Below, in pieces: positions 54,617 to 64,000 of a stretch of DNA of 64,000 bases. The stretch's first letter is position 1. Each line of letters starts with the position of its first letter. Position numbers and translations under genes: made by a program. The DNA comes from Pseudomonadota bacterium (GTDB lineage Bacteria; Desulfobacterota; Desulfobacteria; Desulfobacterales; JBDRRP01): contig JBDRRP010000093.1 in assembly GCA_043825735.1 (NCBI GenBank), forward strand, positions 62,001 through 126,000, written 5' to 3'. The notes beneath the pieces were generated by a model. The model did no database searches and was not told the DNA's origin. It was given only the letters and a program-made list of their open reading frames with translations.

Positions 54617-55306
54617 CTATGTAAGTTGGCTCATCTCCCTTACGTAGCACTGCGGGCAGACCCCGTGCGAGGGCAGGGCACCGGAAATATCAAGGACATA
54701 TTTTTCTACCGAGACCCACTTGCCTGTTTCTTCGCGGACCTTTTTGCAATAACTGCAGATCGGATAAATCTTGCTCAAGTCGTCGAGAAAACGATCCCGG
54801 CGATCTATCTCCGCTTTGGCTAAAACAATGCGAAGAGACAGCTCGATCATCCTTTTGATCTGCTGGACCAGTCTGATGTGTATGTCATTATGAGCGTTGT
54901 GCTTGTTGTCCAGGAAACATACTGTCCCGAACTGCCCGCCATCGGGGCGCTCGATGGGCAGTCCGAGGTAGGAGATAATGTGCAGGCCGACTGCAGCAGG
55001 GTTGTCTTTCCACTGAGGATCTTGAAGCGCATTTGGAATTAGATTGAGCCCCCTGCTCTTCAAAGTATGCTCACAGTACCAGCCAGAATCCGGATACTGT
55101 GCCTTGCACGCGGCCGGATAGGGGTTTCCCTCAGTCTCACTCGAAAGCAGGATCTCGATTTCATTCCCGTCAACGCGCGTGATCAGCCCTGCAGGAACGC
55201 CAAGGATCTCCGCCGTCTCATCGAGCAGGCCCTGCCATTCTTTCAAAACGTCTTCGGTAAGCTTTTCCCGATTGTACGGGTTTGCATCCATATTTTTCAT
55301 ATTCAC
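54617..55306 (-). CDS. GAF-domain protein with C-terminal Cys/His motif
   Basis: WYCEHT...SYLGLPIERPDGGQFGTVCFLD; PICSYCKKVR...SHGVCPQC. Confidence 0.85.
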   Translation of the reverse strand: MNMKNMDANPYNREKLTEDVLKEWQGLLDETAEILGVPAGLITRVDGNEIEILLSSETEGNPYPAACKAQYPDSGWYCEHTLKSRGLNLIPNALQDPQWKDNPAAVGLHIISYLGLPIERPDGGQFGTVCFLDNKHNAHNDIHIRLVQQIKRMIELSLRIVLAKAEIDRRDRFLDDLSKIYPICSYCKKVREETGKWVSVEKYVLDISGALPSHGVCPQCYVREMSQLT

Positions 55307-55352: not shown

Positions 55353-55670
55353 TTATTGGGCCTTTTGATTCTTAGTGTGACCGGCTTCTGCGTGAAGCTT
55401 CAATCCAAGAGCACCGATCACCTTGAGGATCGTGTCAAAACCCGGGCTTCGTTCACCGGACAAGGCTTTGTACAGACTTTCCCGGGACAGGCCGGCATCG
55501 CGAGCCACTTGCGACATGCCCTTGGCCCTTGCAATATCGCCAAGTGCTTTGGCAATAAAGGCAGCATCGCCGTTTGCCTCTTCAAAAGAGGCTTCAAGAT
55601 AAGCAGCCATCTCTTCCGGAGTTCGAAGATGCTCGGAGACGTCGTAACGCGTCGTAATTGTTTTTCCCAT
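55353..55670 (-). CDS. Addiction-module antitoxin (HI1420-like HTH)
   Basis: YDVSEHLRTPEEMAAYL...ALGDIARAKGMSQVARDAGLSRESLYKALSGERSPGFDTILKV. Confidence 0.93.
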   Translation of the reverse strand: MGKTITTRYDVSEHLRTPEEMAAYLEASFEEANGDAAFIAKALGDIARAKGMSQVARDAGLSRESLYKALSGERSPGFDTILKVIGALGLKLHAEAGHTKNQKAQ

Positions 55671-55680
55671 GGTTCAACTC

Positions 55681-55971
55681 CTATAGATTCCTCGATAGCT
55701 GCAAAGCGGTATTAATATCCTTTGCCTGTGTTTTCTTATCGCCTCCAGCCAGCAAAATGATCAACATCTGCCCTTGCTTTTTGTAGTACACCCGGTATCC
55801 AGGGCCGCAGTCGATCCGCATTTCTGAAACACCCTCCCCCACAGGCTTTACATCACCAGGGTTTCCTGCTGCCAATCGTTCGATTCGGACTAGGATGCGA
55901 GCACGCGCCCGAATATCCTGTAACCCATCAATCCATTTGGCAAAATTGTGCGTTTTACGGATTTCAATCAT
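55681..55971 (-). CDS. Addiction-module toxin (RelE/ParE superfamily, HI1419-like)
   Basis: RIERLAAGNPGDVKPVGEGVSEMRIDCGPGYRVYY...LLAGGDKKTQAKDI. Confidence 0.93.
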   Translation of the reverse strand: MIEIRKTHNFAKWIDGLQDIRARARILVRIERLAAGNPGDVKPVGEGVSEMRIDCGPGYRVYYKKQGQMLIILLAGGDKKTQAKDINTALQLSRNL

Positions 55972-56728: not shown

Positions 56729-57598
56729 TCAGGTCTTCATTTGCTTGATGACATCCAGGTAGGCCTTGACGAGGGGGCTGATCTCCGGCGGATGCCAGTG
56801 GGTGTCTTTGGGCGCTTCGGGCCAGGCATCCGGCAGATGGCGGATCTCGCCGGGCGCGGTTGCCGTGGCGAGCAGATCGAGCGCTTCCAGAATCAGCCGG
56901 CGCTGGCCGGCGGCATCTTTCACCTGCCCCACCGGCCGCCCGTAGGGGTATGCGATCGCGGTCTGGCGTGGGATGCCCACGGCGTTGTGAAATTCCCAGG
57001 TGGGGGTGAGGATCACCGTGGAAATCCCTCTTTCTTCCATATATCGGGCGGCCAGTCCCACGGACCGGCAGCAGAACGGTCAGGCCGGGGTGAGAAAGAC
57101 GGCGCCCACCCCTTCTTTGGTCATCTGCTCGGTCATGGGGGCGATGGCCTGCTCGATGAATGCCTCTCCCTCCCACTGAAACCCATAGAAAGAATAGGAC
57201 GTGGGCGCCAGGGCGCCGATGACGCCGTCGGCTTCGAGCTCGGCCATCCGGGTCAGGGGCAGCATGACGTTGATGTCTTCGGCAATGTAGCTCGTGTTGA
57301 TGTGCAGGTGGTTCACCGCCACGTCTTTCCCGGTGGTGCCCCGGGGAATGGCCCGCCAGGTGGGGTCCCCGTAGGTGGGCTCGCGCTTTTCGCGTTCCAT
57401 GTCAAAGGGCGCGTCGGTCTTCAAGCTGATCCCCGCCGAGGTTACCAGCGAAACCGTGGTCTCGCTGAGGGGTTTCTCGAGGGGGGTGAACGGAATGGCG
57501 CCGCTGAAGGGCGCCTCGGGAATGGTTGAGCGAATCCATGCCGACAGTTTGGGGGGCAAGAACCGGAATCCGTCGACGGCCGCAGTCCGTGCAGTCAT
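56729..57598 (-). CDS. PrdB/GrdB-like reductase selenoprotein (UxxC; TGA 57082-57080), 289 aa
   Basis: VSLVTSAG...DPTWR...DINVMLPL...VFLTPA-TGA-PFCCRSVGLAARYMEERGISTV...YPYGRP; two track ORFs in frame; hairpin GCCGGTCC-gtg-GGACTGGC after TGA. Confidence 0.88.
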
Positions 57599-59708: not shown

Positions 59709-60014
59709 GTTTTCTCACCTTCCAAAAAAAACAACCGAAGGCCGCGCTCGCTGCGCCTTCGGTGGTTGAGTTCCACAAAAAAAGCCGTCCAGCCACATCC
59801 GGACGGCCTAGGTCAAAATATCCAGCACTCTTACCGTATAAACCACCAGGATGCAACCTATTTTAATCAACCGGCCGCCAGTCCGTGCTGTCAATGAGGC
59901 GCACAACCTCCCGAGCGGCAATAGATCCTTCAACAATTGCTGAAAATAGGGTATCTAATACCCGTTTCCAAAAGGCATTTTCCGGCCGCCGGTACCCCCC
60001 ATCACAAGGCCCAT

Positions 60015-61151
60015 ATGGCAGATAAAAAAGAATACCTCCAGTGGGACCCATCGCAGGTGCGCTCTGAGGTGGCCGATGCCGTCGCCGTGGCCGGTGGCAA
60101 AGAGCAAATCGTCCTTTCCTTTGGAAGACATCGCCCCCCGGCCCCGGGCGACGAAGCGATCACGGTCGACTGCAGCGACCGGATCATCCTTGGCCCCCGT
60201 GCCGCCAAACGGCTGTCCGTTCTTTTAGACCATGCAGTCGGAGACTGGGAGCGCAGCTACGGAGCCATCGCTGGCGGCATCCGTGCGCCAGCGGGCCGCG
60301 CGGAACCGGCGCCGGCCGAAGAAGTCGCCGCTTTTGAAAACGTGGCCGCCGACCGGCTCTTTTCCCTAGTCCAGACGATTGATGCGCCCGTCGGCTTTGA
60401 GCGCTCTTTTAAACTGTTTGACCGCACCCTGCTGGCGCACCGGTTTCTCATGGGGTTCAAAAAAACCGCGGCCACGGCCGGGGTGACTGCAAAAGTCATG
60501 GACATCTGCCGGCGGACCGATATGCCGGCAGCGTACCGGGACCTGTTTCAAAAGCATCTTCCGGCATCCAATATCGTTCTTTTCGGTTTCGAGGAAAACG
60601 AAGCCGGCAGCGTATACAAGGCCTACCTGGAATTCGGGGGACAGTTCGAATCGGTCCTTCGGGAAAACCCGGCCGACCCCGCGCCCTTTCTCCTTCACCT
60701 GGGATTTAAATGGGACACCGCCGACAACCGGCGCCGTGCCCTGGCTCGGTATGTATGCTTTCCGGCCTACGGCATCGATGACATGCGAGACAGACTGTCG
60801 GCCGTTTTCTACGACGAGCGCCACAAAACGCCGTTCACCGTGACCTGCGCGCTGCTGCGCCTGGCCCGGGAACGGATGATGCCGGAGCGGCCCCTTTACC
60901 TGGAAGTGAGCGAGGACGGCAGCCCCAGACGCTCCTTTGACATCAACCTGTACCGGGCAAACCTGCGGATGGAAACGCTCTATCCGCTGCTGGCGGACCT
61001 TTGCCGCCACTACCGGATCCCGATGGCCGCCTTCCATGACGTCTACGATCCAGTCAGGACACGGTTTTTCGGGCACCTGTCCGGCGGCGTCGACCGGCAG
61101 GGGCGGGATTTTCTCACGATCTATTACGGTGTGAAGGGAAGCACGGGTTAG
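60015..61151 (+). CDS. DUF3467-like N-terminal domain fused to a putative ABBA-fold (LynF/TruF/PagF-like) prenyltransferase domain
   Basis: N-term QWD...EQIVLSFG...DRIILGPRAAKRLSVLL...ERSYG; C-domain FERSFKLFDRTLLAHRFLM, FGFEE...YKAYLEF, terminal LTIYY; assignment by recalled motif similarity only. Confidence 0.6.
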   Translation: MADKKEYLQWDPSQVRSEVADAVAVAGGKEQIVLSFGRHRPPAPGDEAITVDCSDRIILGPRAAKRLSVLLDHAVGDWERSYGAIAGGIRAPAGRAEPAPAEEVAAFENVAADRLFSLVQTIDAPVGFERSFKLFDRTLLAHRFLMGFKKTAATAGVTAKVMDICRRTDMPAAYRDLFQKHLPASNIVLFGFEENEAGSVYKAYLEFGGQFESVLRENPADPAPFLLHLGFKWDTADNRRRALARYVCFPAYGIDDMRDRLSAVFYDERHKTPFTVTCALLRLARERMMPERPLYLEVSEDGSPRRSFDINLYRANLRMETLYPLLADLCRHYRIPMAAFHDVYDPVRTRFFGHLSGGVDRQGRDFLTIYYGVKGSTG

Positions 61152-61157
61152 CCGGCC

Positions 61158-62057
61158 ATGACAAAAGCGCATATCGATCTGAGTACCTACGTGGTGATCT
61201 CGATCTGGTTCGGGTGCAACAACGCGTGCACGATCTGCATGCTGGGCGACATGAAGCGGCATCTGCCGGCCATCGGTTTTGAGGGGTTCAAGCAGGTGCT
61301 TGCGCAAATCCGTGAGCAGGGGCGCTTTCGGAACCTGATCCTGTCCGGGGCCGAGGTGACCACTTTCAATGAGCTGCCCCGGTATGTGGCTCACGCCGCG
61401 TCCCTCAAGTGGTTTCGGAAAATCCAGATCCAGACCAACGGGCGGCGTCTTGGCGAGCCGCGCTATCTACGCCACCTGGTCGATCTGGGCGTCAACGAGT
61501 TTTTCGTCAGCATCCACGGCACCGGCGCCGTCCACGATGCCATCGCCGGCCAGACTGGTGCCTATGAGGAAACCATGGCGGGCATCCGCGACCTGGCGGC
61601 CCTGCCGGTCAACACCATCACCAATACCGTCCTGACAACGGCCAACGCAGGCGATGTCCCCCATCTCATGGAAACGCTTGCCGATGCTCAGACCAGCGAG
61701 ATGCATCTGTGGAACTACTTCCCCATGGAAAGATCCGACACCAGGGGCCAGGTGGTTTCCCTGGCCGAGCTCTGCGCCATGCTGCCGGAGCTCGTCGCCA
61801 TCGCCCTCAGAGCGCAAAAACCCCTGGTGCTCAAAAGCTTTCCCGAATGCCTCGACATCGCCGCGCCGGGCGTCTTTGACAGTTTTTTCCCGGTCACCGT
61901 CCTGCCGGACCCCTTCTGGCGGGAATTTGCCGAATGCGGATTCGGCGCCTGCCCCCACCGGGGACCGTGCACGAATGCGGCCTGCTGGGGACTTTCAGCG
62001 GCGTACATCGAAAAATACGGGGACGAGCGCGCGCGCCTGCAGCCCCGTAGAGACTAG
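61158..62057 (+). CDS. Radical SAM protein with Cys-rich C-terminal extension
   Basis: CNNACTIC (Cx3Cx2C), LSGAEVT, IQTNG, VSIHG; C-terminal FPEC...CGFGACPHRGPCTNAACWG. Confidence 0.88.
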   Translation: MTKAHIDLSTYVVISIWFGCNNACTICMLGDMKRHLPAIGFEGFKQVLAQIREQGRFRNLILSGAEVTTFNELPRYVAHAASLKWFRKIQIQTNGRRLGEPRYLRHLVDLGVNEFFVSIHGTGAVHDAIAGQTGAYEETMAGIRDLAALPVNTITNTVLTTANAGDVPHLMETLADAQTSEMHLWNYFPMERSDTRGQVVSLAELCAMLPELVAIALRAQKPLVLKSFPECLDIAAPGVFDSFFPVTVLPDPFWREFAECGFGACPHRGPCTNAACWGLSAAYIEKYGDERARLQPRRD

Positions 62058-62287
62058 TGGCGCTTCATAGAGAAGCGAAAAATAAATTCCTCGCGCAGAG
62101 ACGCAAAGACGCTGAGAACTGATGACGCTGAATGGTTCACCACGAAGAACACGAACAATTGGTGTGATCTTTGCCGATTGCAGGAGGGGAACCCCTCCCC
62201 TACGAAACAGTCGGAACACCAGCTTGAGGGTCGTGCATAACCAGATTAATGACATTTGCGATAGCGTGCCGGAGTAAAGGGAGGACC

Positions 62288-63157
62288 ATGCCTCAGACAA
62301 ACCGATACGAGACGGCTGAAGCGGGCGATCGCTACCATGACTTCTGCCTTTGGCCATATATGCCCATCGGTTCCTGTGCGGGCAAACTGAGATCGTCCGG
62401 CCTGCTGTTTCACTCCTTTGCGGCGGCCGGCATGCCCGATCGGGTTTACGAACTGATCGGCGCCATCCGCAACGGTTTCGGTGTATCGAACACGGTCTGG
62501 GGCGTGAAACTCGTAGGCGGCGCACTGCGCTGGGAGTTCTACTTCTACGATTACCGCAGAAATGACCGGGAGCGTTCCATGACGCGGCTCCTGGAATTGA
62601 TCCGGCCGCTGGTCGCCTGCGACATTCCGGTCAACGAAAACCATCACTACTTCATGTTTTCCATCGACATCACCACGGATCTGATGGCTAAAAGCGGCGC
62701 TCTCGAGGAGATCCACATGTATATCGGCAACCCGGGCAGCACGGTCTCGTCCGGGATCTGCTACGCCCTCACCGGCGGCCCGCCGCGCCTGGAGAACATC
62801 TACTATTTTTTCGATGCCGAAACGCAGGCCGACGATATTAGCGCCAAAATCGTCTGCTCTTCACACATAGACACCACACACATCGCTCCGGAAGAGATCC
62901 TCTGGCCCGAGATGACAGGGTGCCGGGTCATCGTGGTCGCCAACAAACCGGAAAACGATGCCGTCTATTTTTCGGGCATCGACGTGGGACAACTCCTTTT
63001 CTTTCTCAGGAGAATGGGCTATCCGTCCGCGGTCGTCTCTTTTATCGAGGAAAACCGCCCCCGTCTCGACCACCTGCGTTACGATGTTGGGTTCGACTAC
63101 CGGATGGAGAACGGTTCTCTGGCCATTCTGAAAAGCGGGTTTTACGGAATCTTTTAG
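62288..63157 (+). CDS. Uncharacterised aromatic-rich protein
   Basis: 289-codon ORF with host-like codon usage and GGGAGG RBS; TVWGVK...WEFYFYDY, YFMFSIDI, YDVGFDY. Confidence 0.75.
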   Translation: MPQTNRYETAEAGDRYHDFCLWPYMPIGSCAGKLRSSGLLFHSFAAAGMPDRVYELIGAIRNGFGVSNTVWGVKLVGGALRWEFYFYDYRRNDRERSMTRLLELIRPLVACDIPVNENHHYFMFSIDITTDLMAKSGALEEIHMYIGNPGSTVSSGICYALTGGPPRLENIYYFFDAETQADDISAKIVCSSHIDTTHIAPEEILWPEMTGCRVIVVANKPENDAVYFSGIDVGQLLFFLRRMGYPSAVVSFIEENRPRLDHLRYDVGFDYRMENGSLAILKSGFYGIF

Positions 63158-63400: not shown

Positions 63401-64000
63401 TCACTTGATGGGAAACACGACCCGGCATTTCAAACCGGCCGGCAGGGCATCGTTGGGGTTGGGCAGCTCCAGCCGCACCCCGAAGGTCCCGCTGGCCGCA
63501 TCGACCACCCGGTCCACGATGATCACGCGGGCGCTGTAGGCGCGCGCCGTGTAGGTTTCAGGCTGCACGTCCGCGGTCATCCCGACCGTAATCTTTCCAA
63601 AAAATTCGACCGGTACGATGACTTCCACAAACAGGGGCGTGAGCCGCACGATTTTCACAATCGGGTCTTCACCGACGTATTCGCCGGGCGACAGGAAGCG
63701 CTCCACCACCACGCCCTCGATGGGGCTGCGGATGGTGCGGATGGCCAGTTTTTCCCGGGCCTCCCGGAGTTGGAGTTCGGCAATCCGGAATTCCGTTTCC
63801 AGCTCGTCCTTGTCGTTGACGGAAATGAGTTTCTTTCGGGACAATTCTTCGTTGCGGGCGACTTTGCGCTTGCCGAATTCCATCCGTGCGGCCGCCAGAT
63901 CCACCGCAGCGGTTTCGCTCTCGGAATGAAGACTGGCAATGATCTGCCCCGCCGCTATCCGGTCACCGCGCTCAACGGATATCGCTTCCAGGATTCCGGG
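63401..64000 (-). CDS. RND/HlyD-type periplasmic adaptor (membrane fusion protein), 5' end outside window
   Basis: IRSPIEGVVVER..PGEYV, VVDAASGTFGVRLELPN...LPAGL; frame open to window edge. Confidence 0.88.
   Translation of the reverse strand, partial: PGILEAISVERGDRIAAGQIIASLHSESETAAVDLAAARMEFGKRKVARNEELSRKKLISVNDKDELETEFRIAELQLREAREKLAIRTIRSPIEGVVVERFLSPGEYVGEDPIVKIVRLTPLFVEVIVPVEFFGKITVGMTADVQPETYTARAYSARVIIVDRVVDAASGTFGVRLELPNPNDALPAGLKCRVVFPIK

Follow-up and report, generated by a model that had tools for sequence, protein, structure and literature searches.

What do three neighbouring genes that converge on a secretion adaptor gene do, and on what do their products act? The question is raised by the end of a 64,000-nucleotide (nt) stretch of DNA (hereafter the window), which is part of a 185-kb contig of a Desulfobacterales bacterium (contig JBDRRP010000093.1, positions 62,001 to 126,000, assembly GCA_043825735.1). 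A first reading, made from the letters without database searches and called here the sequence-only reading, had seen in these genes an undescribed tailoring system in which a DUF3467-like domain recruits a secreted substrate for prenylation and radical chemistry. That interpretation is supported by the present analysis; prenyl transfer itself, recruitment through DUF3467 and the identity of the substrate are what we infer from it. Two proteins with a predicted prenyltransferase (PT) barrel and a radical S-adenosylmethionine (SAM) enzyme with a putative auxiliary cluster are inherited together, beside genes for giant proteins and their exporter, in many phyla. The trio is best read as the enzyme arm of a larger conserved system, the other arm of which consists of an exporter module, a stand-alone DUF3467 protein and a giant RTX-type cargo. 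We assign a probability of roughly 0.55 to the trio being a tailoring cassette for the exporter's giant cargo.

The open reading frame (ORF) listing shows three co-oriented genes on the plus strand of the window (genes 1, 2 and 3), with 6 nt between the stop of gene 1 and gene 2. They converge on a minus-strand gene with HlyD-family matches and its 3' end at 63401, just as the sequence-only reading had described for a membrane-fusion protein gene. The longest ORF of gene 1 starts at a TTG at 59937 and contains an ATG at 60015. The start of gene 3 was set at the ATG at 62288 because its homologues are 286-290 amino acids (aa) long. Judged by the numerous relatives of the gene 1 C-domain and of gene 3, all three genes are real and conserved and not chance ORFs. 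The family of the C-domain has 833 representatives at 50% clustering (E ≤ 0.001; 282 of them below 1e-30), and at least 1645 out of 2566 candidate relatives of gene 3 have E ≤ 0.001.

The AlphaFold2 model of gene 1, built with 78 sequences, has a mean predicted local distance difference test (pLDDT) score of 90.3 and a predicted template modelling (pTM) score of 0.76. The DUF3467 domain is modelled as three strands followed by a long helix, and the linker (residues 89-100) is disordered (pLDDT < 50). Residues 110-372 form five alpha-beta-beta-alpha (ABBA) units with ten antiparallel strands, paired at 127-149, 187-206, 225-248, 294-311 and 351-372 and flanked in each case by helices. This predicted ten-stranded barrel is the hallmark of the ABBA or PT-barrel superfamily, and it is the fold on which the sequence-only reading had staked its label of a prenyltransferase-like C-domain. 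In a Foldseek search of the C-domain against the PDB, 113 matches were obtained at E ≤ 0.001, and those listed are all ABBA prenyltransferases with a probability of 1.00 (CdpNPT, 6-DMATS, MpnD, KgpF, PagF, LimF, PirF, AmbP3 and NphB). With VIA-align, 137 chains reach Z ≥ 8, and the rows listed are likewise prenyltransferases throughout. CymD aligns with residues 98-374 at Z 16.0 (root-mean-square deviation, rmsd, 4.0; 259 aligned residues), followed by 5-DMATS (15.4), KgpF (14.7), PatF (14.6), LimF (14.3), DciF (14.2) and PagF (13.9). The gene 1 C-domain is, by confident structure prediction, a very divergent barrel of the ABBA prenyltransferase fold.

At the sequence level, residues 100-378 have no Pfam match and no NCBIfam match at E ≤ 1, and a phmmer search with the single sequence of gene 1 against PDB sequences returned only four unrelated matches (E ≥ 0.24). 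A profile of the gene 1 family, run against the same sequences at E ≤ 10, reached cyanobactin F-family enzymes only, namely two PagF entries (E 0.21) and one LynF/TruF/PatF enzyme (E 0.37). The PagF match, weak by its E value, agrees with the fold result. It covers PagF residues 39-75 (37 residues) and sets E129 opposite E51 and R143 opposite R65, which we take to be the base and a diphosphate ligand of PagF. These residues belong to the motif FERSFKLFDRTLLAHRFLM, which was correctly placed by the sequence-only reading, as was the C-terminal end FLTIYYGVKGSTG. The likeness of the motif to PagF (E-x-S-x-K...A-x-RFL) named in the sequence-only reading lies where the profile aligns, and is borne out to that weak extent.

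Conservation within the family points to a putative active site. Among the 78 sequences, R143 is invariant, E129 and S131 are kept in at least 90%, and K202, Y204, K232, Y246, R305, Y313, R361 and Y370 are invariant or nearly so, like R143. Conserved residues recur at i, i+2 on predicted strands (E129/S131, R143/L145, K202/Y204/E206 and S307/D309/N311), a spacing which suggests that they share one strand face; Y246 and Y370 also lie on predicted strands. The conserved strand residues are rich in Arg, Lys and Tyr.

Gene 3, which had been labelled an unknown protein in the sequence-only reading, is predicted to be a second, very divergent ABBA barrel. Its AlphaFold2 model (34 sequences) has a pLDDT of 92.4 and a pTM of 0.90, with ten strands arranged as hairpins between helices, so that the predicted protein likewise shows the ten-stranded barrel of the superfamily. 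The Foldseek matches listed are again all ABBA prenyltransferases (FamD1, AmbP1, AmbP3, TleC, KgpF and EpzP at a probability of 1.00, and also CymD and FgaPT2). In VIA-align, 130 chains score Z ≥ 8, and the best 50 rows are all prenyltransferases (Z 13.5 to 9.7), led by auraA over residues 1-289 (Z 13.5, rmsd 4.0, 245 aligned) and AtaPT (Z 13.1); the F-family enzymes score 11.2 to 9.7. No sequence similarity was detected between gene 3 and the gene 1 barrel, either by BLASTP, which gave nothing, or by hhalign of the two families (probability 0.5%). Gene 3 has no Pfam match and no NCBIfam match at E ≤ 1, and its 120 listed relatives, typically about 60% identical, carry no Pfam domain or functional name. 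Many Tyr, Lys, Asp and Asn residues are invariant in the family, often at i, i+2 on predicted strands. The invariant or nearly invariant positions include K74, Y85, Y87, Y89, R94, Y121, Y145, Y172, K187, K220, Y227, Y271, K282 and Y286.

A conserved fold need not mean conserved chemistry. The two barrels might be modules that bind or chaperone the unfolded cargo or the radical SAM enzyme, or enzymes with a donor other than an isoprenyl diphosphate. Their sequence similarity to known prenyltransferases is at or below the detection limit, a shared fold alone shows no function, and PatF, a member of the cyanobactin family, has been reported to be inactive. We nevertheless consider this explanation unlikely. 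In both families, invariant polar and aromatic residues alternate along predicted strands across hundreds of divergent sequences, a pattern more readily explained by a conserved active site than by passive binding, and E129 and R143 align with E51 and R65 of PagF. Basic residues and tyrosines neutralise and hydrogen-bond the diphosphate in known ABBA enzymes, as stated in PMC7973389, and many Arg, Lys and Tyr are kept on the predicted strands of both new families.

Between the two barrel genes lies a member of the radical SAM superfamily. Gene 2 matches Radical_SAM PF04055 with E 1.8e-16 (61.2 bits, cut-off 29.5), and the cysteines of its CX3CX2C motif (C20, C24 and C27) are invariant in 23 orthologues. 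The same orthologues also keep C231, C265, C271 and C276 near the C-terminus; by number, these four extra cysteines are enough for an auxiliary iron-sulfur cluster. The best NCBIfam model is HxsC4 (NF038332), at 80 bits for a cut-off of 500. The N-terminal 170 residues align with HxsC4, TrsS, SkfB, PqqE and others, none of which comes near its cut-off, and no SPASM-type or HxsC4 model reached its cut-off in the NCBIfam scan.

Whether the three genes belong together was examined in related loci, for which one genome per species was scanned. This gave 80 loci with gene 1 relatives, and the gene-cluster comparison covered 81 loci and ORFs of at least 90 aa. By record title, the loci come from Desulfobacterota, Planctomycetota, Verrucomicrobiota, Acidobacteriota, Beta-, Gamma- and Alphaproteobacteria, Rokubacteria, Nitrospiraceae and one archaeal bin. 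Related loci are not independent, and the counts are given with no statistic attached. Where at least 2.5 kb of downstream sequence was available (62 loci), genes 2 and 3 were both present in 38 and both missing in 24, and in no locus was only one of them found. The co-occurrence expected by the sequence-only reading was thus observed. A sample of 301 genomes of the phylum contained the gene 1 barrel in five genomes and gene 3 in four of the same five, and the eight genomes of the same order within this sample had neither. The distribution of the trio is rare and patchy, and its genes are coupled. That the three genes are unrelated neighbours which came to lie beside an adaptor gene by accident could be argued from the local map, with the trio and the exporter operon on opposite strands and a housekeeping DEAD-box helicase gene on the other flank. 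Such an accident is hardly credible when 38 loci in many phyla hold both genes 2 and 3 and none holds only one, and when both barrels occur in the same rare few of 301 genomes. Chance adjacency was rejected, as it is contradicted by the locus co-occurrence, the 301-genome sample and the gene maps.

What, then, ties the trio to secretion? Gene 1 passes the Pfam gathering threshold for DUF3467 (PF11950), as its N-domain had been named in the sequence-only reading. Aligned with 16 stand-alone DUF3467 proteins, this domain is 28% identical to the copy in its own genome, and by its sequence it is a homologue of the free DUF3467 protein encoded first in the exporter operon just past the window. Beyond position 64000, the minus strand carries, in order, the HlyD adaptor, a SecA-like ATPase, an M50-HlyD protein, a GAF-HlyD protein, the DUF3467 protein and an RTX giant (locus L002). 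The four export genes (L002 3902-11724, minus strand) follow directly after the window and are adjacent to each other. They make up the 'secondary SecA_DEAD' module, which Kamneva, Poudel and Ward (2015, PLoS One, PMC4452313) reported as a conserved type I secretion-like locus of GAF-HlyD, Peptidase_M50-like-HlyD, a SecA_DEAD protein and an HlyD/Biotin_lipoyl adaptor. The sequence-only reading had mentioned stand-alone DUF3467 proteins beside adaptor genes in type I secretion loci for giant proteins. A locus of this kind is indeed present just past the window, but its exporter is the SecA_DEAD/M50/GAF/HlyD module. A classical type I secretion system was considered and rejected: no ATP-binding cassette (ABC) transporter domain was found in the six exporter-side ORFs scanned, and a SecA-like ATPase stands in its place.

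The exporter link is recurrent. Among 40 trio loci, a giant or RTX-like ORF is present in 24, at least one exporter gene in 17, and either of them in 31. A typical order on one strand is giant, gene 1, gene 2, gene 3, O-methyltransferase, DUF3467, GAF-HlyD, M50-HlyD, SecA-like and HlyD. In 11 loci, gene 1 comes immediately after the giant gene and on its strand, with a gap of 3-168 nt or an overlap of 58 nt. Of the 301 genomes of the phylum sample, nine contain a close homologue of M50-HlyD (E below 1e-100), and three of these nine are among the five with the gene 1 barrel. The exporter is found both with and without the trio, which makes the cassette an optional addition to it. Cultured carriers, by record title Kistimonas asteriae and Devosia insulae, have the two barrel genes, the radical SAM gene and a giant gene side by side. 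No RNA sequencing run was listed that contains the trio stretch.

The giants themselves offer a candidate target. Eight of them, including that of the own genome, share a C-terminal motif that reads roughly A-x-G-L-M-G-W-K ... I-D-R-x-S-F-x-x-L ... K-K-R-F-K-R-W, with invariant G, W, F, L, R and W (L002:12249-12569, minus strand, and L009, L010, L012, L013, L018, L020 and L022). The own genome's giant has an extra tail of about 35 residues after the motif. In L006, L008 and L017, the giants have another motif in common at their end, ...W..F...NPN.DI.V.L...KK, which also contains a tryptophan. It is speculation that the C-terminal region is both the export signal and the modified site. A complex prediction of the stand-alone DUF3467 protein with the C-terminal 106 residues of the giant gave no answer (score 0.00), which speaks neither for nor against binding. 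A SecB-like nature of DUF3467 was considered and not confirmed: a profile of 17 DUF3467 sequences had one chance-level match among PDB sequences (E 0.56), a protein atlas search with DUF3467 returned DUF3467 clusters only, and no Pfam SecB match was found in 13 related genomes.

Most relatives carry a fourth gene. A Methyltransf_2 O-methyltransferase with its dimerisation domain is encoded no more than 3 kb from gene 3 in 26 of the 36 loci with room for it; in the own genome, a search for this enzyme returned only a distant match on another contig (28% identity). The three-gene set of the sequence-only reading is therefore conserved as such but incomplete as a description of most relatives. 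Several accessory genes recur in related loci, and none of them was seen in the stretch read here: the Methyltransf_2 O-methyltransferase (29 loci), a small PRK-type kinase (eight), a TolC-like OEP (seven), a SapC family protein (seven), and B12-binding and other radical SAM enzymes, with examples at L018:13514-14650, L047:11203-11814, L004:14082-15527, L078:1759-2541 and L028:11885-13273. Some related loci add OmpA. Two stand-alone DUF3467 genes adjoin in L022, L053 and L062, giving up to three DUF3467 modules per system when the fused one is included.

The gene 1 barrel family itself occurs in three forms: alone (about 265 aa), behind DUF3467 (about 370-400 aa) and as a tandem behind DUF3467 (about 590-700 aa), the last recognised by two matched stretches in 18 of 150 listed rows. 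Gene 1-type barrels also form the C-terminus of longer proteins (P0266, P0282 and P0287), whose N-terminal parts match FAD_binding_3, FAD_binding_4 or sulfotransferase families. FAD_binding_3 is of the aromatic hydroxylase or halogenase type. These fusions place the barrel among tailoring enzymes.

The same fusions suggest a different substrate, as flavin and sulfotransferase domains of these kinds are usual in small-molecule tailoring. The cassette could make or tailor a small molecule or a short ribosomal peptide, for instance a prenylated and methylated aromatic, in which case the HlyD machine would export the product or merely be a neighbour, and the giant would not be the substrate. The gene that usually comes fourth encodes a Methyltransf_2 enzyme with a dimerisation domain, barrel relatives are fused to flavin monooxygenase-like, flavin adenine dinucleotide (FAD)-oxidase and sulfotransferase-like domains, and some loci add a B12-radical SAM enzyme, further radical SAM enzymes and a small PRK-type kinase. 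Prenyltransferases of free tryptophan and of small molecules are among the best structural matches, and nine of the 40 trio loci lack both giant and exporter genes in the flank that was fetched. This explanation is nonetheless improbable in our view. Across the 81 loci, no genes for non-ribosomal peptide synthetases, polyketide synthases or precursor peptides recur among ORFs of at least 90 aa, a limit below which short precursors would escape. The sequence-only reading had seen no obvious precursor peptide in the window, and no small precursor-like ORF stood out there or, at the same ORF size, as a recurrent cluster in related loci. Moreover, gene 1 carries the exporter's own DUF3467 module, and it lies directly behind a giant gene in 11 loci.

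Tailoring of the giant cargo thus remains the preferred reading, and several points weigh against it. The PagF motif match is weak, and no Pfam or NCBIfam prenyltransferase model matches gene 1 or gene 3. Nor is the trio obligatory: beside gene 1 relatives, genes 2 and 3 are missing in 24 of 62 loci. Two of the five phylum genomes with the gene 1 barrel have no close M50-HlyD homologue with the query used, and six of the nine genomes with the exporter lack the cassette. The nine trio loci with neither giant nor exporter gene also count here, although many of those contigs are short. In the own genome, the trio converges with the exporter operon and does not lie inside it, and the giant gene is about 9 kb away. 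Finally, the methyltransferase type and the fused flavin and sulfotransferase domains leave room for a small-molecule or small-peptide substrate.

A mechanism can be outlined for the cassette as a modifier of giant cargo. Both barrels would bind an isoprenyl diphosphate through their conserved Arg, Lys and Tyr lining. In the cytoplasm, they would alkylate the unfolded giant at side chains that are aromatic or otherwise nucleophilic, probably in its conserved Trp-bearing C-terminal export region, to which the radical SAM enzyme may add a cross-link or other C-H chemistry. The exporter uses DUF3467 as a free protein; the fused copy could therefore be a handle by which the gene 1 enzyme reaches the cargo, or the SecA-like motor, ahead of export. 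The O-methyltransferase would complete the set in most relatives. In the fullest version of this scheme, giants of many phyla would be covalently prenylated at the Trp-bearing C-terminal region by two PT-barrels docked through DUF3467 onto a SecA-driven, ABC-less type I-like exporter, then cross-linked by the radical SAM enzyme and, in most lineages, methylated. It would be the first system that prenylates secreted proteins of bacteria. We put this version forward only as a tentative possibility. If true, the tailoring logic of ribosomally synthesised and post-translationally modified peptides would apply to cargo of thousands of residues.

How does the cassette compare with known systems? One of the closest is the cyanobactin F-family (PagF, LynF/TruF/PatF, KgpF, LimF, PirF and DciF). 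Like the predicted barrels of genes 1 and 3, these enzymes form a ten-stranded ABBA barrel of about 280-300 residues, and their substrates are peptide side chains and not free metabolites. They are only 12-15% identical to the barrels described here, which match no family model, a LynF/TruF/PatF model being part of the NCBIfam release. Unlike the F-family, the new barrels lack the context of a cyanobactin protease, precursor and heterocyclase, and gene 1 is distinguished by its DUF3467 fusion, a second unrelated barrel, a radical SAM enzyme and the link to a giant-protein exporter. The best structural matches of genes 1 and 3 are the DMATS-type and bacterial indole ABBA enzymes (CymD, 5-/6-DMATS, PriB, CdpNPT, FgaPT2, AtaPT and auraA). 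Those proteins of 340-430 residues act on free tryptophan, dipeptides and small aromatics in secondary metabolism, whereas genes 1 and 3 are shorter, about 10% identical to them and found in a secretion context. Gene 2 resembles the SPASM/twitch-type radical SAM maturases in combining CX3CX2C with C-terminal cysteines, and differs from these and from HxsC4 in its short length (299 aa) and in scores far below the family cut-offs.

Lipidation of a protein before or during its targeting by a dedicated cytoplasmic enzyme is known from two routes that are functional analogues of the proposed system. RTX toxins are acylated by HlyC, an acyl-ACP (acyl carrier protein) acyltransferase. In eukaryotic CaaX processing, a prenyltransferase, an intramembrane metalloprotease and a methyltransferase act on the protein, and the prenyltransferases are alpha-alpha barrel zinc enzymes. 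By analogy, the wider system described here would contain the same three kinds of parts as the CaaX route. The proteins are not homologous, however, no CaaX box is present, and the parts are known here from sequence and predicted fold.

The exporter genes past the window correspond to the published module (PMC4452313). The main text of that paper mentions no DUF3467, radical SAM, prenyl or methyltransferase, which places the enzyme cassette and the DUF3467 link outside the module as described there. In the accessible part of a 2026 review of peptide and protein prenylation, neither 'bacterial protein' nor 'radical SAM' is mentioned, and no description of the enzyme cassette was found in our literature searches, in line with the sequence-only reading. 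So far, ABBA prenyltransferases are known to act on small metabolites or on short peptides of the cyanobactin type. The present loci add two large unannotated families of predicted PT-barrels that are tied to a radical SAM enzyme and a giant-protein exporter in many phyla. If the cargo is lipidated, this would explain the anchoring or activation of the giants and give DUF3467 a function. It would also identify the cargo and accessory enzymes of the SecA_DEAD/M50/HlyD module, for which no function was known when it was described in 2015, and provide new protein-acting prenyltransferases for biocatalysis. Since cultured carriers exist, the question is directly testable. The features of the locus are collected in Table 1.

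Table 1. Genes, domains and motif of the trio and genes of the neighbouring exporter operon, with positions in the window
Feature	Position	Strand	Description
Gene 1	60015..61151	+	378 aa from ATG; DUF3467 domain, disordered linker, predicted ABBA (PT-barrel) domain
DUF3467 domain (residues 9-85)	60039..60269	+	PF11950, E 8.2e-8, 32.6 bits (cut-off 25)
ABBA / PT-barrel domain (residues about 98-378, ~280 residues)	60306..61148	+	Predicted fold; new sequence family
Motif FERSFKLFDRTLLAHRFLM (residues 128-146)	60396..60452	+	Predicted barrel strands 1-2; E129, S131, K133 and R143 conserved
Gene 2	61158..62057	+	Radical SAM enzyme, 299 aa; second cysteine cluster
Gene 3	62288..63157	+	289 aa; predicted second ABBA / PT-barrel protein; alternative start 62249 (302 aa)
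HlyD-family periplasmic adaptor, 3' part	63401..64000	-	HlyD_D23, HlyD_3, TIGR01730 RND_mfp; continues beyond the window end
HlyD/Biotin_lipoyl adaptor, whole gene	spans window end	-	269 aa in all; last gene of the exporter operon
SecA-like ATPase	past window	-	664 aa; SecA_DEAD, preprotein-binding and P-loop domains
M50-like/HlyD	past window	-	721 aa; M50/daptide-type HExxH membrane protease part fused to HlyD
GAF-HlyD	past window	-	622 aa
Stand-alone DUF3467	past window	-	116 aa; 79 bits
Giant protein	past window	-	2405 aa; RTX repeats

Some other features of the window lie upstream of the trio, all on the minus strand. At 56729-57598, a GRDB-like frame (glycine/sarcosine/betaine reductase selenoprotein B family) is interrupted by a single in-frame TGA, and its first part is matched by Pfam GRDB with E 2e-9. 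Read with TGA as U, it becomes a single frame of 289 residues with ...FLTPAUPFCC... at residue 173. This points to one gene with a selenocysteine codon and not to two genes. A likely toxin-antitoxin pair is found at 55353-55971, with a Gp49-like protein (PF05973, 96 aa) followed by a dnstrm_HI1420 'addiction module antidote' helix-turn-helix protein of 105 aa. The G+C content of this stretch is 0.48-0.52, compared to about 0.6-0.65 around it, and it adjoins a 147-aa ORF without a family match. At 54617-55306, a 229-aa GAF-domain protein is encoded, whose C-terminal part contains four cysteines in two C-x-x-C pairs (CSYCKK...CPQC).

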